58,823 nt of DNA from an uncultured Piscirickettsiaceae bacterium (lineage in GTDB: Bacteria > Pseudomonadota > Gammaproteobacteria > GCF-002020875). The notes under the pieces are model-generated. The model was not told the DNA's origin, did not search any database, and saw nothing but the letters and a program-made list of their open reading frames with translations. The stretch is taken from NCBI GenBank assembly GCA_964654355.1, contig CAZZIQ010000001.1:1-58823 (forward strand), given 5' to 3'. Both the position numbers and the translations under genes were made by a program. Shown here in pieces: positions 50,128-58,823 of the stretch (the first letter of the stretch is position 1; every line of letters begins with the position of its first letter).

Positions 50128-50478
50128 GTGACCGAATTCACGCCCGAAGAAGAGCGCTTTCAATGGCTGCATGAAATGCAGGTTTTGATCGGGATCGGCT
50201 TTGCCGAAGAACAGGCCGTGAGCCTGATTTGTTCGCGCAAGGGCCTTCCGCAGGATCCATCGTTTACGAAATCTTTGTTGATCGAATACGCTCGGGCACG
50301 CGTGCAACAGCGCCACATGCCGAGACTTTCTGCCTGGGCAATTCCTTCGATTGTTGCGAAGTATCCCCTCAGTGAGGACGCTGCGATTGAGCAACGTCGC
50401 GCCGAAATCTTGCAGGCCTGTGAGGGCGTCACAAAGCCCGCCGGTCTAAAACCACGCACGCCACCGCGGATTGTGTGA
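50128..50478 (+). CDS. Hypothetical protein (GC-rich, co-oriented with rlmD)
   Basis: 116 aa with a GTG start 4 nt after the rlmD stop. Its composition resembles the core genome rather than the downstream island. I recognise no motifs. Confidence 0.45.
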   Translation: MTEFTPEEERFQWLHEMQVLIGIGFAEEQAVSLICSRKGLPQDPSFTKSLLIEYARARVQQRHMPRLSAWAIPSIVAKYPLSEDAAIEQRRAEILQACEGVTKPAGLKPRTPPRIV

Positions 50479-50519
50479 TTCAAGCAAACGCGCAAATACT
50501 TCTACAAAAAAATAAATAC

Positions 50520-50548
50520 TTGACAGATATCTTGATGATAATGAAGAT
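50520..50548 (+). promoter_or_regulatory. Weak candidate sigma-70 promoter for the island operon
   Basis: A perfect -35 TTGACA (50520-50525), 17 nt, then GAAGAT (50543-50548; 3 of 6 matches to TATAAT, including A2 and T6). The -10 ends 9 nt before the first ATG (50558), so the mRNA would be nearly leaderless. Confidence 0.25.
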
Positions 50549-50557
50549 TGTAACCAA

Positions 50558-50977
50558 ATGTTGTTGTCGGTGATTACAAGGTTCTATCTGGAAATCATTC
50601 TTGCTGTTTGTGCGTCATTCTTTCTTATTTTTTCTGTCTCTGTAGCGACTGCTGCAGAAGAAACACTGTTTGAGAGCAGTAGCTCTATTGGAATACAAGT
50701 CATGACAAAGATCAGTCGGTCTGATGCGATAGACCAAGTTGAGGCGAATTCAATGCTCCTGGCGGGCCGTCTCCTGAGTCAATACATCAAAAGAAGGTCT
50801 TCTGATCTATGTCCTGACAGAGCAATCGTATCCGTTAACACGCAAGGACTTTCAGTGAGAGTCATCAATAATCAAATAAGTCCTGACTTCGAGGGCAATG
50901 TTCGCCATCGATATGAAATTTCCATAGATAAGGCCGATCTTGATGCATTAGCGATCAAGAATTGTGGTTTTTTCTGA
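50558..50977 (+). CDS. Island gene 1: small exported or membrane-anchored protein, unknown function
   Basis: 139 aa. The N-terminal hydrophobic segment ends in VATA|AEE. The mature part has an amphipathic helix (SRSDAIDQVEANSMLLAGRLLSQYIK) followed by beta-like segments, and two Cys residues (DLCPD, KNCGFF). Confidence 0.7.
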   Translation: MLLSVITRFYLEIILAVCASFFLIFSVSVATAAEETLFESSSSIGIQVMTKISRSDAIDQVEANSMLLAGRLLSQYIKRRSSDLCPDRAIVSVNTQGLSVRVINNQISPDFEGNVRHRYEISIDKADLDALAIKNCGFF

Positions 50978-51019
50978 CCTCAAATCCCATTTATAAATTA
51001 AAACGATGAGGATGCTCTC

Positions 51020-52657
51020 ATGAATCCAAGCCCACTCAAGATAGCAATCGTAGGCGCCATTTTTGGCTTTGGCATACCAAACGCTTCATTAGCCGCCGTT
51101 TCTGCAAGCGCTGAAGCTTCTGTGGCGGTTAGTCAGGCGCAGACATTGCAACCAAGATTCATACCATCTAAGACTGCTTTTGAGCAGGCTAAAGCCTTTG
51201 TTAAAGAGCAGGGTGTAAAGCAGGGATGGGATACAGATCGAGAAATGTATGTGCAGATCGGTACAGCGTATTTTGACAATGAAGACCCTGCCTATGACAG
51301 CACTTTTGTCACAAAGCGCTCATTGGCTTCAATGCAAGCTACGCTCGAAGCGAAAGCGAAAATTATAGAATTTATCAACACCAAAATGAGTGCGATCGAT
51401 CAGGTGACGACGCCAGGTACCGATCTCTCTGCAAGATTCAATAAAGACATTAGGATGCTTGAAGGGAAGCTCAACAAGCAAAGAGAAATTCTTGCCAAGT
51501 TGATGGCAGAGGTCGATGCCAAAGAAGCGGATAAGCTGTCTGGCGTGACAATCGGTGATCGTATGAAGGCGTTAATGGATGCGAGCATCAAGAAGCTAGA
51601 CCAAACCTATAGTGCAAAAAATATTTCTGAAGAAAAAAGAGAAGAGTTCGAGAGAGCAAAGAAGAAATATGATGAGGCGATTGCCGGCTATGAAGACCTG
51701 AAGGCCAAGCTAGAAGAGACCAAGGGAAGTATCCGTAAGGAATCCTCTTCAACGGTTGAAACGATTTCACAAATGCCACTTTTTGGCGCTACAACTGTGG
51801 CTCAGTTCGAATCTTTCGACAAAAAGAAAGAAAGCTATAACGTCTCTGTGGTTGTAATGTGGGGAAAGAAGACAGAGCGCGTCGCCCGGGCTTTGTTGCA
51901 AGGCGAAGACTTCCCTGTTCCTCCCGGTGACCAGTCGATTGAAGATTGGGTTGACTCCAATAATTGGTCGACATCGACCGGTGGTCGTCAATTCCGAGAC
52001 AAAGACGGAACTTTCCACTTTGTAGGCATTGCCGCTGCAGATGCAGGTGAGACGGCAATGGATCGAGAAGATGCTATGGGCGTTGCAGAACAGATGGCGA
52101 AGAAAGAAGTTGCCATGTCTCTGTTCGCGGACGTGATGTCTCATAAGAAGGCGCAAGAGGCAATGCAGGTTCGTTCCGGTGGAAATGGAAAAGACACCGT
52201 ACAAGCTGGACAAAGTTTTGCCAAAACCGTGCAGCAATCGATTGAGGATCGTCAGATACAAGGTCTTCAGCAGCGTTTTGGTGGGTTTGTTGAGCACCCC
52301 ATTTCGGGTAAAGAAATCTACGTTGCTATCTATTCCTTGGACAACAAATCGGCAAAAGCCGCCATATGGGCAGAAGAGCGCAACTACTTGACTTCAATTC
52401 TTGATGAGAAGGCTCAGCAGAAAGCCAAAGGCCGTACCGATGGTTACAAGGATGCAGTAGAGGCAGCGAAGAAAGATCAGACTGAATACAACAACGCGCG
52501 AGCTGCTTCGTCATCAGACTTAAAAACAAAAGCAGCTTCGTCGGCGACATCACAAGAAGTCGTTTCTGAGCAGGTAGATACTGGTACGGATGCACCTCGC
52601 CGCTCACGCTCAGGTGTCTTCTCTGGGGCAGGTCAATCTGGCGGTTTGAATTGGTAA
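51020..52657 (+). CDS. Island gene 2: secreted protein with two LPP20-like modules and a long coiled-coil insertion
   Basis: 545 aa. GAGGA lies 7 nt upstream of the ATG. Signal peptide KIAIVGAIFGFGIPNASLA|AV. A K/E-rich heptad-like region spans ~aa 135-240. The C-terminal module is FVGIAAADAGETAMDREDAMGVAEQMAKKEVAMSLFADV...EIYVAIYSL. Confidence 0.8.
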   Translation: MNPSPLKIAIVGAIFGFGIPNASLAAVSASAEASVAVSQAQTLQPRFIPSKTAFEQAKAFVKEQGVKQGWDTDREMYVQIGTAYFDNEDPAYDSTFVTKRSLASMQATLEAKAKIIEFINTKMSAIDQVTTPGTDLSARFNKDIRMLEGKLNKQREILAKLMAEVDAKEADKLSGVTIGDRMKALMDASIKKLDQTYSAKNISEEKREEFERAKKKYDEAIAGYEDLKAKLEETKGSIRKESSSTVETISQMPLFGATTVAQFESFDKKKESYNVSVVVMWGKKTERVARALLQGEDFPVPPGDQSIEDWVDSNNWSTSTGGRQFRDKDGTFHFVGIAAADAGETAMDREDAMGVAEQMAKKEVAMSLFADVMSHKKAQEAMQVRSGGNGKDTVQAGQSFAKTVQQSIEDRQIQGLQQRFGGFVEHPISGKEIYVAIYSLDNKSAKAAIWAEERNYLTSILDEKAQQKAKGRTDGYKDAVEAAKKDQTEYNNARAASSSDLKTKAASSATSQEVVSEQVDTGTDAPRRSRSGVFSGAGQSGGLNW

Positions 52658-52675
52658 ATGACCGAAGGAAAAAAC

Positions 52676-54139
52676 ATGAACTTTAGTAAAAAGATTTTTC
52701 TTGCATCAGCATTATCGCTGTCGTTCTTAGCTCATCCGGGTGTTGTGGCCGCAAAGTCTGTCAGTGGCATTACTGTTGAGATTCCGTTTTCTACCAAAGT
52801 GAAGCGTGCTGTTGGTGCAGAGGCAATTTCGCTGACAGCCAGTCGTCAGTATGAAAAAACAGGGGTTTTTTCCAGCGACCCGACTGATGAAGAGTTGAAA
52901 AAAATTAAGGCGCAGGTCGAGTCTTCTGCCAAAAAAGAACTTCTTAACAAGTATCTTGCGCGTATTCCTGCTTCAGATATCAAGCAGGCAGATCGATCCA
53001 GGCTCAACGCACAAGTGGATTCGCTTGTCTACGACGTGAGCGTGAGCCACCAGATTGACAGCAGCAATAAGACCATCAATTTTGAGGTGTCAGGGAAAAT
53101 TAATACCAATCTGATCGATGAGATTGGAGGCTATAAGCCATCTGAAGACGACATGAGAAAGGCGGAAGAGTCCGCACGTATGGCGGTTTTGGACAAGTAT
53201 ATTGCCAATCAAGATGAGTCGAAAATCGATCAGATCGAAAAAATGAAGTCAAAAGTCTATGAGCGTATTGATGAGGTCGTTACATCCTCAAGGATCACGA
53301 ACTACAAGGTAAATGCCGAGCGCAAGGTTATTGCCTTCTCCGTGAAGGGAAAGGTTAATGACAAGCTCTTCGACAAAATCCTTTATTCAGATATCGAAAA
53401 GGTATCCCGCTCGGAAAAAAGACCCTTCACATATGTGATTGTTGCTCGTGTTCAAGATGAAACAACGCGCTTCACGATGGATCCGAACGTAGAAAAAACC
53501 AATGAAACGGGCTCTGGTAGCACATCTGTCAAAGAAAATAAAACAGCAGATGACTACCAAGACAATGCTTCATCTGAGACATCAGTGAAGATGGAAAAGA
53601 ACAAATCTAAGTCCGTAGAAAGATCGAGTGGCGTCACGAAAAATGTCACCAAATTCAAAGATGTGACTTGGAAGCAATACAACAGTAAGTCTGTTGATGC
53701 GAATATCAAAAAAGTGCTTCGTGATGGTGGCTACAACCTGAAGGGTTTTGGTCGACTCCTTAGGAGATCTGGTGTCGATCTTGAGCTCGAAAAAATCGAA
53801 TCTGATTTGCTGACTGGGAAGATATCTCCAGAAGTCGAAGACGGTCTGTTCGATGTGATGGAAGGTAGTGGTACTGAGCTGTTCGCCAAAGGCACGATGG
53901 ATGTGGATAGCGTTCAGCCCGATGCAGCTACTGGTGGCTGGAAGGCGCGTGTTCAGGTTTTCATCGAGGTGCTCGGCTTCACCGACGATTGTGAAGCTTG
54001 TGTGCTGGGCGTGGTCGAGGATGCCTATTTTGGTATCGGTCCGTCAGAAGAAGCCGCGATTGACCAGGCTGTTGGTGATGCTGCTACAGAAGCAACCAAA
54101 AGCATCGTCGCGCAGCTTCGATCTGAGCAGATTCAGTAA
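52676..54139 (+). CDS. Island gene 3: secreted modular protein with an internal tandem ~80-aa duplication
   Basis: GAAGGA lies 6 nt upstream of the ATG at 52676. The tracked ATG at 52658 immediately follows the upstream stop. Signal peptide MNFSKKIFLASALSLSFLAHPGVVA|AKS. There are two homologous modules (aa 76-156 and 162-241, in track numbering), a K/S/T/N-rich linker, and a C-terminal alpha/beta module ending GIGPSEEAAIDQAVGDAATEATKSIVAQL. Confidence 0.8.
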   Translation: MNFSKKIFLASALSLSFLAHPGVVAAKSVSGITVEIPFSTKVKRAVGAEAISLTASRQYEKTGVFSSDPTDEELKKIKAQVESSAKKELLNKYLARIPASDIKQADRSRLNAQVDSLVYDVSVSHQIDSSNKTINFEVSGKINTNLIDEIGGYKPSEDDMRKAEESARMAVLDKYIANQDESKIDQIEKMKSKVYERIDEVVTSSRITNYKVNAERKVIAFSVKGKVNDKLFDKILYSDIEKVSRSEKRPFTYVIVARVQDETTRFTMDPNVEKTNETGSGSTSVKENKTADDYQDNASSETSVKMEKNKSKSVERSSGVTKNVTKFKDVTWKQYNSKSVDANIKKVLRDGGYNLKGFGRLLRRSGVDLELEKIESDLLTGKISPEVEDGLFDVMEGSGTELFAKGTMDVDSVQPDAATGGWKARVQVFIEVLGFTDDCEACVLGVVEDAYFGIGPSEEAAIDQAVGDAATEATKSIVAQLRSEQIQ

Positions 54140-54145
54140 ATTCTG

Positions 54146-55387
54146 ATGGGCTTCATGATGAACAAGAAAATCTTGGTCTTCCTGCTCGCTTTCATGGCGG
54201 GGCCAGCGCTCGCAGGTCCTGTCGATGAAGTGGGTGTAACGGCTTTCGGTGTTGCCTCAACCAAGCAGGACGCAATCAAGAAGGCGCTTGTGCAGGCTGT
54301 TGAGCAGGTAAATGGCGTAATTCTCGATTCTAAAGAGAAAACCTCTCTTGAATCTATTGCGGAACAAGCGTCTGCTTCTGCGGAGGTGTCTGCATCGACT
54401 ACGCGTGCAGATGGCTCTGCATCAAGCGCAAAATCAACTGCGCTTTCGAAGGCAAAATCTTCGTATGCAAAGAAAGAGAGTTCGCAGGACACCACCACAA
54501 AAACAAGTGGAGTCGTACGCTCTTGGCGTCTGCTAGGTCTTGAGAAGCAGTCAGATGGCCTGATTGAAGCGAGCGTCGAAGCCAAGATTGCTGTCCTGAA
54601 AAAGTCCAGTTCCAAGAGAACCAAGGTTGTTCTTCATATTGCTACTGACAATGAAAACTCCCCATTAATGAAGATTTTTTCGACTAAGCTCCAGGAGCTT
54701 TTCTCAAAGAGCAGAAAATTTGCCGTTCTAGATCGAGAAAATGATGAGCTTTTTGCGAGAGAGATCGATCGTGCGAATCAGGGTGGGTCTGTTCCACGTG
54801 GCGTGCTTTCTAAGGGCGGCAGTGATGCGCCAGATTTGATTGTCTCGATGAGCTATGAAGCGATTAATTCTGAGAATGGTGTGGAGTTTTCACCGAGGAT
54901 CAAAGTTCTTGATCTGGTGTCTCAAGAGTCGATCTATAACGGCTCGAAGCGGATTCGGATCAACTCCGATGATGCGGATCGTAGGGTTGCAGGGAAAATC
55001 AAATCTGCGGCGAAATCCATGCATAAAGAGTTGATTGAAAAAATCGCGCAACCGACTGTGCTTGGGTTTTCAGGAAATGCATTCACGGTGAGCCAAGGTT
55101 CTGATTTTTTTAGGGTTGGAGACCAAGTCCAGATCACTGCAGCGGTAGATGAGGTGAAAGATCCGTATACCGGCGAAAGATTGGATTATGTGTATGAAGA
55201 CCTTGCTCTAGGGAAGGTCCAATTCGTGAATACAAATATTTCAACAGTGTCTGTAGCTGAATCCGATATTGATCGAGTTTTTGATTATGCGGAGCAGGGA
55301 AAAAAAATTCTCGTCCGCTCAATCAAGAAAAAGATCGATACCAAAGACATGAAAAAACAAGCTGAGGACTTTTTGAATGATCTATAG
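54146..55387 (+). CDS. Island gene 4: secreted FlgT-like three-domain protein (LPP20-like N, CsgG/TolB-N-like middle, beta-rich C)
   Basis: Signal peptide KKILVFLLAFMAGPALA|GP. The N-domain is VTAFGVASTKQDAIKKALVQAVEQVNGVIL. The middle domain is KLQELFSKSRKFAVLDRENDELFAREIDRANQGG...DLIVSMSY. The C-domain is FTVSQGSDFFRVGDQVQI...LALGKVQFVNTNISTVSV. The start could be 54146, 54155 or 54158. Confidence 0.8.
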   Translation: MGFMMNKKILVFLLAFMAGPALAGPVDEVGVTAFGVASTKQDAIKKALVQAVEQVNGVILDSKEKTSLESIAEQASASAEVSASTTRADGSASSAKSTALSKAKSSYAKKESSQDTTTKTSGVVRSWRLLGLEKQSDGLIEASVEAKIAVLKKSSSKRTKVVLHIATDNENSPLMKIFSTKLQELFSKSRKFAVLDRENDELFAREIDRANQGGSVPRGVLSKGGSDAPDLIVSMSYEAINSENGVEFSPRIKVLDLVSQESIYNGSKRIRINSDDADRRVAGKIKSAAKSMHKELIEKIAQPTVLGFSGNAFTVSQGSDFFRVGDQVQITAAVDEVKDPYTGERLDYVYEDLALGKVQFVNTNISTVSVAESDIDRVFDYAEQGKKILVRSIKKKIDTKDMKKQAEDFLNDL

Positions 55388-55910
55388 TCGTGCTGCATCT
55401 CTACTTGTTGTTGGTTTGCTAGTGCAGGGCTGTACAGGCGGCTCGGTTGGTAATGTTCGGCTTGACCCTGTGTCGACTCAACTCGTTCAGAGTGTCGTTG
55501 TTGATAAGGCCAATCAATGCAAACTAGTCGCAGTTCTCTCTGTTAAAGAAGCGAACGATACCGGCTTGGCTGGAAAGTATGGATCTAGGATCCAGAATCG
55601 ATTTATTGATCAGGCGTCTCAAGTCCCGGGAAGAACCTACTCAATTTCTACGGAGTACAGAGCCATCCCTATCGAGCAGTTCATGCCGGGCGGTGACTTC
55701 GTTTCTGATCGGAAGATCATGTCTGACCTTCAGTCAAAAGGAATTGATTGTCTGCTTTCAGGGACGTTTTGGCTGAGTAATGGTGTATGTGAGACCACTC
55801 TTAAGCTCCATCGATTCCCATCGATGCAGCTGATTTCTAGCGAAACCAATGCATATACCAAAAGCTGGTACTCAAATCAGTCCGTTTCTCAGCAAGACTT
55901 CTGTAAGTAA
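55377..55910 (+). CDS. Island gene 5: small lipoprotein, TolB-N/LpoB/FlgO-like fold predicted
   Basis: 177 aa. Lipobox-like LLVQGC|TGG. The pattern KLVAVLSVKEANDTG...IQNRFIDQASQ...IMSDLQSKGIDCLLSGTFWL...TTLKLHRF is typical of that alpha/beta module. The start overlaps the end of gene 4 by 11 nt. Confidence 0.8.
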   Translation: MIYSRAASLLVVGLLVQGCTGGSVGNVRLDPVSTQLVQSVVVDKANQCKLVAVLSVKEANDTGLAGKYGSRIQNRFIDQASQVPGRTYSISTEYRAIPIEQFMPGGDFVSDRKIMSDLQSKGIDCLLSGTFWLSNGVCETTLKLHRFPSMQLISSETNAYTKSWYSNQSVSQQDFCK

Positions 55911-55930
55911 TCGTACGTCCTAGGATTTAA

Positions 55931-57358
55931 ATGATGTCTACTATGAAAAAAACCCTTATTTCAGTCTCAATTGCCGCAGCATGTTCATTTAGTGCGCAGG
56001 CATTCAATTTTGGTGATTTCGCAAAACAAATGGAACAGCAGATGGGCGGCAGTGCCCAGCAGCAAGACTCTGGCGCCAATTCAGGGGGATTCGGCGGTCT
56101 GTTCGGTGGCATGGGCGCCCCAGCGCAATCTTCCGGCGCGGCCTCTAGTCAAGATCCGATGGAATTCGCATGCCGTAGTGTTTATGGGCCGCCGATGAAA
56201 TTGGCAGATCTTGGCAAATCGAATGAAGAAGTTGTTGGGGAATATTTCAACCTGACTGCCAATCTTGATGAGGTGCTGATCATTGATGCCACCAAAAACT
56301 ATGAGGGGTCGTTTACAGGTCTTTCTGAAAAGCTGTTTGAGTCATTCGAGGAAAATGAGCCGCGTAAGATCGGCATGGAATACTTAAGAAAACCTGGCAT
56401 CGAGACGCTTGCCCAGATTATTCATCAATCAAAAACGGCAGATAGTTATGAAGAAGATGATGGATTTGGCTCAGTAAAGCCATCAACAAGATCCAATATG
56501 CGCGCTGTCCTTGGGTTAATCCTTTTGCAGTACAGAGATTCGGGCGTTCTGAAAAATCCTAATGCAGGAGTCGAACTGTTACAGAAGGAATCCAAGAAAG
56601 TCAAAATTGCTGGAACAATGATTGGTAGAGCTCATCTTTATGGTGACTTGTTGCAGAAAAATTATGACGCAGCTGGAAATTATCTCCTCCAGTCAGGCGG
56701 CAATGCGGCTTATACAAAATTGAATGACCAGACTCTGGCCTCCATTGCGAATGAAGCTTTTCCAGGATTTCCAGAGAGCGTGAAAAATCAGATTGTCTCT
56801 CTCAGCCAGCAGAGTGCGAGTATCCAGGCCGAGTTAGCCAAGCAAAAGAATGCCAAGTCTGGGTCTGACCTGGTTCAGCGCGCCAATGTTCTCATCGAAG
56901 AGGGGCAAAAAATTGATGACCTGACCTTAGATGCATTGGGCGCAGGATCAAAGATTGCAGATCGCCGTGCAAAAGCGAACTTTGCTAAAAATGAAATGTC
57001 CGGAGCGAACGATCTCCTCGATTTCAATTATCAACAGAGCAAAGAAAGCCAAAAGATTATTGAAGAGACGCTGAGCAGTAACGTCACCATGGATGACGAG
57101 GCCAAGAACAAGTTCGCAGAGGCGAACAAGCTCCGTGCCGAGAATTTGGGCAAACTCAATTCGCTCAAGTCACAAGTAGCCATTTCATTTTTCACAGACG
57201 GCTTAGGGGAAACGCTTAACGCTGGTCCAGTCATTAATCGCTATTTCCGCGACACCTGCCAAATGAGCAAGCGAATGAAGGACTATGCGGAAGAAGAAGC
57301 CATTCCAAAGAAGGAGATTAGTAAAGCGGCTATGGATGAAATGATGATGGATGACTAA
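55931..57358 (+). CDS. Island gene 6: secreted protein with a G/Q/S-rich disordered N-region and a helical body
   Basis: 475 aa. AGGA lies 5 nt upstream of the ATG. Signal peptide KKTLISVSIAAACSFSAQA|FN (IAAAC could alternatively be a lipobox). The low-complexity stretch is QQMGGSAQQQDSGANSGGFGGLFGGMGAPAQSSGAASSQ. The remainder is predicted helical or coiled-coil and ends in an acidic MDEMMMDD. Confidence 0.8.
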   Translation: MMSTMKKTLISVSIAAACSFSAQAFNFGDFAKQMEQQMGGSAQQQDSGANSGGFGGLFGGMGAPAQSSGAASSQDPMEFACRSVYGPPMKLADLGKSNEEVVGEYFNLTANLDEVLIIDATKNYEGSFTGLSEKLFESFEENEPRKIGMEYLRKPGIETLAQIIHQSKTADSYEEDDGFGSVKPSTRSNMRAVLGLILLQYRDSGVLKNPNAGVELLQKESKKVKIAGTMIGRAHLYGDLLQKNYDAAGNYLLQSGGNAAYTKLNDQTLASIANEAFPGFPESVKNQIVSLSQQSASIQAELAKQKNAKSGSDLVQRANVLIEEGQKIDDLTLDALGAGSKIADRRAKANFAKNEMSGANDLLDFNYQQSKESQKIIEETLSSNVTMDDEAKNKFAEANKLRAENLGKLNSLKSQVAISFFTDGLGETLNAGPVINRYFRDTCQMSKRMKDYAEEEAIPKKEISKAAMDEMMMDD

Positions 57359-57360
57359 GC

Positions 57361-58599
57361 GTGCTTTCTCGGCGTATTTTTTTACAAGGAGTGGCTGCGC
57401 TGCCGATAGCCTTATTGGCTGCGCAAAAGCGGGCGCTAGCGCAGATTGGGCCTGAATTTTATTGGTCTGGTGTTGGGTTCTCAGTCGCTGAAGCCAACAA
57501 AGCTAAATATTTTTCTCAGATCCTGGGTGGCCTCGAGTTGCGCGGAGGGATGTCTCAACTCGAGTCTGCATTCTCTTCCCAGCTTGCAAATGCATTCGGT
57601 GAAGAAAATGTACATCGAGATCCATTCGAAATGTTGGATCTGGATGAAATCCAAGGTAGTTTGCTTTTCTCAGTTGTTTTTGATTATGAGCAATTCTTGG
57701 AGATCCCGGATCTCGGTGCAAAAGGCGGTCAAGATCTCGTCAATTCAATGATTTTTGCTACGGCAACGATCTTTGTTGTGAGTGACGATGAGCTTCGCAT
57801 CAAATATAGCATTCCGTTTTACACCAAAGCCCAGCCGGTAAAGATGCCGTTGCCCGAAATTGCATCAACAATGCTTTTCGATGGATTTGATGAAGGTCAG
57901 TCAATCGTTGAATACATGGGTTCTAAGATCTCCGAGAAAAAATTCGAAGAGAGTGCCTGTTATACGCCTTTGCTGAGGGTTGTTAATTCCAGTATCCGAG
58001 ACAAAGCCTCAACCATCCTTCGTGAGGTAGGGATTGATGGTTGGGTCACGGATGAGTTTGTGGGGAGTGTGCTTTCCTCGAGCTTGGCTATGAAGGGCGG
58101 TTTATCGGTTCTCCCGCATAAGGCAAACAGCTCGATTGGCTTTAAAGGGCTGATTGGCCGATTCAAGAATCGTGAAGCCTCGGACCTTCTTAGAAGTTTG
58201 GATGAGCTTCAGCCAGACATTACCTTCGATATTGAGGTTCGAAAAATTGTCCGTAAGTTAAGTGGCTCAACTGCGACAAATCGTACCTATACACGCTTCG
58301 TCGTACTGAAAATCGTTGCTACGGAATCAATTGACGGAAAGGCTGTTTTCGACGGAAAGATTGGCTTTGGCGCGAATCATGAAGTTCCGATCTCAATGAT
58401 GAAGGATGGAAAGCTTCCTGCGCTGGACTCGAATCTCTATTTCCAAATCATCATCAGCCTGATTGACACCTTTGTTGAGGGGGTAATGAAGCTGGACTGG
58501 GAGCAGTTGGAATCCATCAATCTTAAAAAAGCTGCAAATGAATCACAGGTCGGCGCATTGGCAGACCTTCTTATCAAAGCAAGAGATATGTGCTCATAA
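57361..58599 (+). CDS. Island gene 7: Tat-signal periplasmic protein, unknown function
   Basis: 412 aa. The GTG start lies 2 nt after the gene 6 stop. The N-terminus MLSRRIFLQGVAALPIALLAAQKRALA|Q matches the twin-arginine consensus S/T-R-R-x-F-L-K. I see no Cys/His cofactor motifs. Confidence 0.75.
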   Translation: MLSRRIFLQGVAALPIALLAAQKRALAQIGPEFYWSGVGFSVAEANKAKYFSQILGGLELRGGMSQLESAFSSQLANAFGEENVHRDPFEMLDLDEIQGSLLFSVVFDYEQFLEIPDLGAKGGQDLVNSMIFATATIFVVSDDELRIKYSIPFYTKAQPVKMPLPEIASTMLFDGFDEGQSIVEYMGSKISEKKFEESACYTPLLRVVNSSIRDKASTILREVGIDGWVTDEFVGSVLSSSLAMKGGLSVLPHKANSSIGFKGLIGRFKNREASDLLRSLDELQPDITFDIEVRKIVRKLSGSTATNRTYTRFVVLKIVATESIDGKAVFDGKIGFGANHEVPISMMKDGKLPALDSNLYFQIIISLIDTFVEGVMKLDWEQLESINLKKAANESQVGALADLLIKARDMCS

Positions 58600-58649
58600 T
58601 AACTCTGGGCATTTTCGCGCAGAAACGTATTGAATGATTGGTGTGTATA

Positions 58650-58823
58650 TCAAGTTGGTTTCGGCTTAAGTACGAGTTTTCCCCGCATGCCACCAGCCTC
58701 GATGCGGCGATGTCCTTCGGCGGCTTGTTCGAGCGGATAGATTTTAGCCACTTCAATTTTGAGGCTGTCGGTTGCCATCAAGGCCGCACAGCGACGCAGG
58801 ATTTCGCCTTGATGCCTACGTGC
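58650..58823 (-). CDS. C-terminal fragment of a zinc-type alcohol dehydrogenase / quinone oxidoreductase (MDR family), truncated by the window edge
   Basis: The reverse-complement frame reads ...ATDSLKIEVAKIYPLEQAAEGHRRIEAGGMRGKLVLKPKPT*. The 'L...A.EAH..+E.G...GK+VL' ending is typical of MDR quinone oxidoreductases. It is absent from the ORF track because its start lies outside the window. Confidence 0.6.
   Translation of the reverse strand, partial: ARRHQGEILRRCAALMATDSLKIEVAKIYPLEQAAEGHRRIEAGGMRGKLVLKPKPT

Follow-up and report, generated by a model that had tools for sequence, protein, structure and literature searches.

A conserved and unannotated envelope gene cluster with FlgT-like and FlgO-like proteins in an uncultured Piscirickettsiaceae bacterium

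Introduction

FlgT, FlgO, FlgP and TsaP are textbook accessory rings on machines of the bacterial envelope, and the origin of such parts is an open evolutionary question. H-rings have been described for Vibrio-type gammaproteobacterial motors, and in Vibrio flgO is encoded beside flgT and flgP. The subject of this study is a cluster of seven genes for exported proteins, here named g1 to g7, in a stretch of 58,823 nucleotides (nt) of DNA from an uncultured Piscirickettsiaceae bacterium (GenBank assembly GCA_964654355.1, contig CAZZIQ010000001.1, positions 1 to 58,823), which is referred to throughout as the window.

The closest described systems are known in structural detail. FlgT is present in 26 copies round the LP ring and carries a C115-C287 disulfide, while the C-terminal tail of Vibrio FlgP, which ends in F143, docks in a groove of the FlgT ring (PMC13626733). 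FlgP, Lpp20 and FlgT (in its domain FlgT-N) have a common SHS2-like fold (PMC12222027). TsaP has a LysM domain and encircles PilQ, the secretin of type IVa pili, as a belt (6VE2, 3JC8); its C-domains are β-rolls of the FlgT-C type, and the belt is heptameric (bioRxiv 10.1101/2020.05.29.123786).

The window proteins are claimed by no such system. Scans of Pfam, NCBIfam, PHROGs and PADLOC returned no significant match for any of the seven, a sub-threshold FlgO match of g5 aside, and no characterised pathway was found to account for them, as an earlier note made from the letters of this DNA had anticipated. All the source names for the operon proteins and their homologues are 'hypothetical protein', with the exception of one evident misnomer. 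The cluster is a genuine, widespread, conserved and wholly unannotated envelope gene cluster. The block appears to encode self-contained envelope proteins that would assemble into an outer-membrane-tethered periplasmic scaffold independent of flagella, a reading that we hold tentatively and that falls somewhat short of probable.

Results

A four-gene core of exported proteins is conserved

The earlier note had described seven forward-strand reading frames, and their lengths, coordinates and junctions were reproduced here (Table 1). The junctions are, in order, 42 nt, 18 nt (or 0), 6 nt, an 11-nt overlap between g4 and g5, 20 nt and 2 nt. Two in-frame ATG codons are available for g3 (52658-52678 region); the ENA/NCBI calls use the downstream one, which has a Shine-Dalgarno-like GAAGGA sequence ahead of it, and the JGI calls in a sister lineage take the upstream one.

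A hydrophobic N-terminal segment was found in all seven products (best 12-residue Kyte-Doolittle mean 2.1-3.0), with no second transmembrane-like segment in any mature part. Judged from their N-termini, g1 to g4 and g6 are predicted to leave by the Sec route, g5 as a lipoprotein and g7 by twin-arginine translocation (Tat). The sequence LLVQGC of g5 fits the PROSITE lipobox pattern, and its Cys is kept by every g5 homologue and followed by A or T (position +2). The same pattern is found in g6 (SIAAAC), a candidate that had not been listed before, but this Cys is not kept in the g6 family. Against the Tat motif S/T-R-R-x-F-L-K, with h-region and AxA site, the putative signal of g7 reads SRRIFLQ, then GVAALPIALLAA, then ALA/Q; R4 and R5 are invariant in a 36-sequence alignment of g7 homologues (A7), and a distant homologue from Caballeronia has a Sec-type signal in place of Tat. 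The claim of an export signal on every product thus held, and tight junctions together with N-terminal signals agree with the description of one co-transcribed-looking block of exported proteins.

To assess conservation, related loci (given here by L numbers) were fetched via g4 alone, four from genomes and 49 from metagenomes, and searched with iterated profiles of all seven proteins. Co-occurrence was counted in the 19 g4-anchored loci with at least 1.3 kb upstream and at least 4.5 kb downstream. Homologues of g3, g6 and g7 were each found at 18 of these 19 loci, and all three together at 17; g3 was present in 30 of the 31 loci having at least 1.3 kb upstream of g4. Colinear homologues with 21-33% identity to the window proteins occur in Rubrivivax, Burkholderiaceae and Piscirickettsiaceae metagenome-assembled genomes, and the gene set is retained despite a rearranged order at L025, L044, L074 and L081. 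The genes do co-occur elsewhere, as the earlier note would have them, but the conserved unit is a four-gene core, g3-g4-g6-g7, with variable accessories and not the full set of seven.

g4 has the domain layout of FlgT

An exhaustive HMMER search with g4 gave 318 representative homologues, mostly of 380-440 amino acids (aa) and matched full-length. When 71 members of the family were scanned singly, Pfam CsgG was matched by 47 and LpoB by 43, followed by FlgT_M (nine), TolB_N and LPP20 (five each), FlgT_C (two) and FlgT_N (one), the FlgT counts being taken at E < 0.01. The matches fall in N-M-C order along the protein, with LPP20/FlgT_N at about 38-136, CsgG/LpoB/FlgT_M at about 126-300 and FlgT_C/TsaP at 306-373. 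This layout is family-level evidence, as g4 of the window gives no Pfam match alone.

The putative N-domain is LPP20/SHS2-like. An LPP20 match below the Pfam cut-off covers residues 38-136 of one family member (P0011), and a profile of the g4 family (A1) weakly matches a Campylobacter jejuni scaffold chain (9hmf_C, positions 27-123, E = 0.054). The middle domain is matched with more confidence: family members reach 45 bits for CsgG and 36 bits for LpoB over residues ~126-300, above the gathering scores, and profile A1 matches CsgG chains at positions 148-267 (E = 5e-4). For CsgG, relatives of g4 score 24.5-45.3 bits where the threshold is 20.8, and g4 of the window has no match at E <= 1. The C-domain was identified through TsaP, profile A1 matching both C-domains of the Pseudomonas aeruginosa protein (6ve2_O, E = 8.6e-13) and a Myxococcus xanthus chain (3jc8, E = 5.5e-5). 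A CsgG/LpoB-type module in the middle of g4 had been proposed before and is borne out by these family matches; the β-roll at the C-terminus had been missed.

By its sequence, g4 is a protein with the predicted domain layout of FlgT that is not itself FlgT, because the FlgT scores in Pfam are below cut-off (the best listed for FlgT_M is 25.0 bits against 31.2), the FlgT sequence in the PDB is missed, and g4 of the window contains no Cys where FlgT has its disulfide. Compared with TsaP, g4 has one β-roll only, preceded by LPP20-like and CsgG/LpoB-like domains. A LysM match was found neither on g4 of the window nor among the families matched by the 71 members, and no pilQ or other pilus gene lies nearby. 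LpoB (the activator of penicillin-binding protein (PBP) 1B) and LptE-like lipoproteins have the same kind of small α/β module. Unlike them, g4 is without a lipobox or a long linker and the module is embedded in three domains; the cluster is linked to neither lptD nor a PBP gene.

Accessory genes differ between variants of the cluster

The genes surrounding the core fall into variants. Homologues of g2 were found only at variant A loci (L011, L015, L022-L024 and L069), and the FlgO-like g5 is likewise confined to variant A; a FlgO-like gene is missing from most loci. The order in variant A (L069-L071) is a gene for a 478-aa protein, g2, g3, g4, g5, g6, g7 and a gene for a YdjM membrane protein. 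The 478-aa protein, encoded 5' of g2 (L069 279-1715), is exported and has no Pfam match, no match to a family profile and no counterpart in the window.

Variant B is the commonest and has two small exported proteins, Xa and Xb, in place of g5. Genes for an SH3b protein and an M48 peptidase precede the cluster, small transmembrane proteins are encoded 3' of g7, and a divergently transcribed CHASE2-domain gene often adjoins. The SH3b/M48/CHASE2 arrangement was seen at L072 (1858-5081) and about 10-20 further variant B loci, and Ser/Thr kinase and FtsW/RodA-fusion genes lie near the cluster in five to six. The neighbours of variant B hint at a connection with the cell wall or with sensing at the envelope.

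A cultured carrier is Caballeronia sp. SBC2, in which the order is g4-Xa-Xb-(g7-like)-g3-(222 aa) and every gene is annotated as hypothetical (plasmid pSBC2-3, SBC2_RS38295-38320; L081 8956-14320). This cluster resides on a 795-kb secondary replicon and is flanked by an IS701 transposase gene and two genes for site-specific integrases.

Distant relatives of g4 were also found in a separate conserved cluster, likewise uncharacterised, with the order (about 440 aa)-YcfL/DUF1425-LpoB-DUF6844-(g4-like), located at L082 5179-10182 (Azospirillum sp. TSH100 p1, E6C72_RS31085-31105) and at L077 1263-4900. It resembles the present cluster in having a full-length g4-family protein, in that all its products are exported and in its acidic-aromatic C-termini; it differs in its partners, YcfL, LpoB and DUF6844, which are undetected by the g2, g3, g6 and g7 profiles. 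In Azospirillum it adjoins a gene for a giant Ig-like domain protein. DUF6844, for which no functional literature was found, also occurs in non-flagellated Francisella (FTL_0572).

These arrangements bear on the possibility that the products form a cell-wall-associated complex, in which LpoB/CsgG-like modules, in place of building a ring scaffold, would regulate the synthases or hydrolases of peptidoglycan from the outer-membrane side or act as their adaptors. The LpoB matches of the g4 family, some above the gathering score, argue for such a complex, as do the SH3b, M48, CHASE2, kinase and FtsW/RodA-type neighbours of variant B and the paralogous cluster, where genes annotated as YcfL and LpoB accompany a g4-like gene. 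However, neither g4 nor g7 is a predicted lipoprotein or has the long disordered linker of LpoB, and g4 bears a β-roll of the ring-type FlgT-C/TsaP class. The variant in the window has no SH3b, M48 or peptidoglycan-enzyme gene, and the kinase and FtsW neighbours are limited to the five to six loci given above. A role of this kind is considered rather improbable.

The model of g7 resembles CsgG, LptE and FlgT

No named relative of g7 was found by sequence, nor any Pfam or PDB sequence match. Word-indexed homologue searches were nearly blind for these proteins, returning two matches for g7, eight for a g7 profile and one for a g3 profile; the distant homologues came from the exhaustive HMMER search with g4 and from the loci fetched through it. 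An AlphaFold model of g7 on nine sequences had a predicted local distance difference test score (pLDDT) of 40 and was discarded. Diverse homologues were then added by exact look-up, and the AlphaFold2 model from the resulting 36-sequence alignment had a pLDDT of 82.2 and a predicted template modelling score of 0.83. For one g7 homologue the collection lists more than 100 contigs, spread over 218 blocks.

The best neighbours of this model in the PDB by Foldseek were FlgT (3W1E, E = 3.2e-5), many chains of CsgG and the Vibrio LPHT ring (8Z5N), in which the matched chain of 352 residues is, by its length, probably FlgT. GNA1162, Cj1090c and LptE were also among them, these neighbours having E = 3e-5 to 1e-3, as was a minor lipoprotein of Acinetobacter baumannii (5TSE). 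Template modelling (TM) scores reached 0.62 when normalised to the target and about 0.25 when normalised to the query; LptE, Cj1090c and 5TSE had the highest target-normalised values (0.5-0.6), with CsgG chains at ~0.4. The model places a strand, a helix, three long strands and a helix in this order twice, so that g7 may be a tandem pair of modules of the CsgG/LptE/FlgT-M type, the lobes being divided here by secondary-structure order and not by coordinates. Such a gap between the two TM normalisations would be expected where a single domain of the target covers only half of a query with two lobes. As modelled, the fold of g7 resembles the CsgG/LptE/FlgT type, an assignment that was missing from the earlier list of modules, of which those of g4 and g5 stood.

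The similarity to CsgG raises a further possibility, a CsgG-type (type VIII-like) secretion channel in the outer membrane in which g4 and/or g7 would be the pore and g2, g3 or g6 secreted surface or fibre subunits. In members of the g4 family the middle domain scores above the Pfam CsgG threshold, and both CsgG and the GNA1162/DUF799-type lipoproteins are near the g7 fold. CsgG is also the most frequent Pfam match of the g4 family, covering up to 185 of 210 profile positions (P0058), alignments of its chains with the g7 model span some 260 columns (E about 3e-5), and G/Q/S-rich low-complexity stretches are present in g6 and g2. In contrast to CsgG, which is lipidated, g4 is by its sequence a Sec substrate with no lipobox and g7 a predicted Tat substrate. 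Library scans of the seven proteins revealed neither a csgE/F/A/B-like gene nor amyloid repeats, g4 of the window is without a CsgG match, and the TM-scores are modest, with the smaller non-pore lipoproteins scoring higher than CsgG on the target-normalised scale. A channel is accordingly regarded as distinctly improbable.

g5 is a probable divergent member of the FlgO family

The best match of g5 is to Pfam FlgO (PF17680), over residues 34-160 and 121 of 130 profile positions, with 17.3 bits against a cut-off of 22.6 (E = 0.0044). Homologues of g5 at L019 and L069-L071 carry precomputed Pfam FlgO matches with E <= 1e-5, and g5 is placed in the FlgO family because of them. From its sequence, g5 is probably a divergent FlgO-family lipoprotein, as had been suggested. 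The synonymous divergence of g5 from its sister-lineage counterpart (L011 5578-6111) is low, with dS (synonymous substitutions per site) of 0.39 against 1.2 to >2.5 in its neighbours, which could reflect a recent recombination patch or an RNA constraint.

The pairing of a predicted Sec-exported, FlgT-like g4 with a FlgO-like lipoprotein, whose gene overlaps it downstream, is a point of likeness to Vibrio, and the acidic-aromatic C-terminal tails described below recall the tail of FlgP that docks in FlgT. FlgT is moreover the top structural neighbour of g7. The gene pair and the structural likeness of g7 would be explained if the block were a displaced H-ring or disk locus, with g4 as FlgT, g5 as FlgO, another gene as FlgP and the motor encoded elsewhere. 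However, FlgT_M matches never attain the Pfam cut-off, the g4 profile misses the FlgT sequence and g4 lacks the Cys pair of the FlgT disulfide (PMC13626733). No FlgP/LPP20 match was found in any neighbour of g5 by Pfam scan. No flagellar counterpart is known for the core partners g3, g6 and g7, most variants do without the FlgO-like gene, and the carriers include Burkholderiales. The earlier statement that no flagellar, pilus, secretin or curli gene occurs nearby was upheld for the annotated parts of the window and extends to the annotated related loci, none of which has a flagellar gene within 10 kb; pilus, secretin and curli genes are likewise unlinked there. A displaced H-ring locus is thus very unlikely.

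The other proteins and a search for shared modules

g3 contains tandem duplicated units of about 75-110 aa (z = 10 against shuffles), and two Cys in its C-terminal domain are nearly invariant; none of 19 family members has a Pfam match and no PDB sequence match was found. g6 has two invariant Cys (C81 and C443), no Pfam match in any of 20 family members, no PDB sequence match and no match among plasmids. Two g2 proteins were scanned without a Pfam match, and g2 has no relative among PDB sequences. g1 is absent from all the other variants searched and has no Pfam match.

Small modules of the LPP20/FlgP type had been proposed to recur through g1, g2, g3 and the N-terminus of g4. This proposal survives for g4, at the level of the family and below cut-off. 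In g1, g2 and g3 such modules are not detectable by profile methods, these proteins having no Pfam match; all-against-all hhalign between the cluster families gave a best probability of 20% (g3 with g4 9-14%, g2 with g4 2%). Modules shared detectably at the sequence level were rejected because no probability between families exceeded 20%.

An acidic run with an aromatic C-terminal residue (...DW, ...DDF or ...PW) is present in many proteins of this cluster and of the paralogous clusters. The C-terminal residue is Trp in 37 of the 71 g4-family proteins, often behind an acidic run (alignment A1), and g2 of the window ends in ...GLNW (52640-52657). Xa (L016 5149-5787, L081 10185-10844) and the DUF6844 and LpoB-like neighbours (L076, L077, L082) end in ...DDF or ...PW. 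By analogy with FlgP, such ends may be a shared docking tail.

Chromosomal setting, selection and composition

Outside the block, the window is typical core chromosome of a gammaproteobacterium, with only housekeeping genes in its annotated parts (infB-rbfA-truB-rpsO-pnp, nlpD, rpoE-rseABC-degP-lepA-lepB-rnc-era-recO-pdxJ, sdh and rlmD) and the ccm operon just past its end. A sister lineage, 85-95% identical, has the same block at the same chromosomal site, between rlmD with a 116-aa open reading frame (ORF) and a convergent Zn-dependent alcohol dehydrogenase (Zn-ADH) gene and ccm operon. Directly after rlmD, the 116-aa ORF (50128-50478) has host-like GC content and no Pfam family, is kept in the sister lineage with a ratio of nonsynonymous to synonymous substitution rates (dN/dS) of 0.12 and marks the left boundary of the low-GC block. 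At the other end the sister lineage has two additional genes between g7 and the convergent ADH gene (L009 2631-3757, L011 8793-9919), one for a UPF0114 (YqhA-like) membrane protein that overlaps the g7 stop and one for a protein with a GmrSD_C/HNH-type nuclease domain; both are missing from window positions 58600-58660.

Selection was measured between the window and the sister lineage, the ratio of nonsynonymous to synonymous differences (pN/pS) being given where dS was saturated. dN/dS was 0.02-0.12 for g3, g5, g6 and g7 (g3 0.03, g6 0.02), and pN/pS was 0.09-0.20 for g2 and g4 (0.09 for g2, with dS saturated). g1 was 33% identical to its sister counterpart with a pN/pS of 0.57, and is barely constrained. 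From these values and the distribution of g1, g2 to g7 are constrained genes under strong purifying selection and g1 is a doubtful, lineage-specific component.

The GC content of the g1-g7 block is 0.461, against 0.558 in the upstream and 0.563 in the downstream flank. The block had been called compositionally foreign, and the dip of about 10 points is real, but it recurs in most of the lineages compared (L069, L016, L059, L045, L030, L022 and L025), where the cluster is 3-9 points under its flanks (0.40/0.49 at L069, 0.475/0.55 at L016, 0.53/0.58 at L059 and 0.655/0.69 at L045). Part of the dip is thus intrinsic to the cluster genes, and the dip alone is not proof of recent foreign origin. 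Since the sister lineage has the block at the same site, any transfer is older than the split between the two. The 10-point gap, the island context in Caballeronia and the patchy taxonomic spread are compatible with horizontal transfer.

No flanking direct repeats of the block were found, there is no mobility gene in the window, and terminator-like sites around the block were not in clear excess over shuffled sequence. The leader contained no consensus sigma-70 promoter, and no Rfam family was matched. An origin as a defence island or from a phage was rejected, there being no PADLOC or PHROG support. That unrelated genes for exported proteins came to be adjacent by chance on a horizontally acquired island, as the low GC, the unconstrained g1 and the differing accessories might suggest, is extremely unlikely given the tight or overlapping junctions and the fact that g3, g4, g6 and g7, at identities of 21-33% and in spite of rearrangements, recur as a set in 17 of the 19 loci fetched independently.

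Table 1. Features of the g1-g7 block; positions are those of the window (E, strand; H, helix)
Feature	Position	Strand	Description
AT-rich leader 5' of g1	50479..50557	+	left edge of low-GC block; putative promoter role
g1	50558..50977	+	139 aa, hydrophobic N-terminal signal or anchor; lineage-specific, doubtful component
g2	51020..52657	+	545 aa, predicted Sec-exported accessory protein, C-terminus ...GLNW
g3	52676..54139	+	487 aa, predicted Sec-exported core protein; alternative start 52658 = 493 aa
g4	54146..55387	+	413 aa, predicted Sec-exported FlgT-like core protein
g4 N-domain	54218..54520	+	about aa 25-125, LPP20/SHS2-like
g4 middle domain	54578..55030	+	about aa 145-295, CsgG/LpoB/FlgT_M/TolB_N-like α/β module
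g4 C-domain	55061..55264	+	aa 306-373, FlgT-C/TsaP-type β-roll
g5	55377..55910	+	177 aa predicted lipoprotein, putative divergent FlgO-family member; accessory, variant A only
g6	55931..57358	+	475 aa, predicted Sec-exported core protein, G/Q/S-rich N-terminal linker
g7	57361..58599	+	412 aa, predicted Tat-exported core protein, CsgG/LptE/FlgT-like α/β fold in model
g7 putative twin-arginine signal peptide	57361..57441	+	aa 1-27, MLSRRIFLQ...KRALA/Q
g7 lobe 1	57457..57933	+	aa 33-191; E33-40, H44-79, E101-115, E126-141, E144-157, H164-191 in model
g7 lobe 2	57973..58587	+	aa 205-409; E205-212, H214-244, E287-303, E307-322, E327-343, H352-409 in model

Discussion

In the tentatively preferred reading, that of an outer-membrane-tethered periplasmic scaffold, the g5 lipoprotein would be the lipid anchor that ties the complex to the outer membrane at its inner leaflet; the residue of g5 at +2 is T and not D. 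g4 would oligomerise via its β-roll and middle domain, in the manner of FlgT round the LP ring and TsaP round PilQ, and g7 would fold in the cytoplasm, leave by Tat and add further layers to a ring or lattice. g2, g3 and g6 would be structural partners whose acidic-aromatic C-terminal tails may fit into grooves on the FlgT-like subunit, in the way known for the tail of Vibrio FlgP. Since neither an ATPase nor a polytopic membrane protein or barrel is encoded in the window, the assembly would play a passive part, as a structure for stiffening, spacing or docking or as a base for surveillance of the envelope.

Several points weigh against this reading. The formation of a ring, disk or lattice is argued by analogy, the window encodes no partner machine for a ring to surround, and modules of the CsgG/LpoB/LptE type occur in roles other than rings. 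g4 of the window is without a Pfam match, the FlgT_M, FlgT_N, FlgT_C and LPP20 matches of its relatives are below the gathering scores, and profile A1 does not match the PDB sequence of FlgT (3W1E) at E <= 1. g2, g3 and g6 have no fold assignable by Pfam or PDB profile searches, and a flagellar link in trans, elsewhere in the host genome, is possible.

In a fuller form of the scaffold reading, the core with its changing accessories would assemble in the periplasm, beneath the outer membrane, into a ring, disk or lattice that stands free of flagella and pili and is common in aquatic Gamma- and Betaproteobacteria. Such a structure would be either the source pool of the flagellar H-ring and disk proteins and of TsaP or a parallel exaptation, with g7 as a previously unseen Tat-exported component of double-module type. 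We consider this possible, on the unlikely side.

In this cluster known building blocks of the FlgT, FlgO, CsgG and LptE types recur in a conserved context that is neither flagellar nor pilus-related, among them a FlgT-like protein and a FlgO-like lipoprotein. Their companions are three core families, g3, g6 and g7, and the accessory g2, all without a Pfam family. As the cultured Caballeronia sp. SBC2 carries the cluster, the role of these modules outside the flagellum is directly testable.

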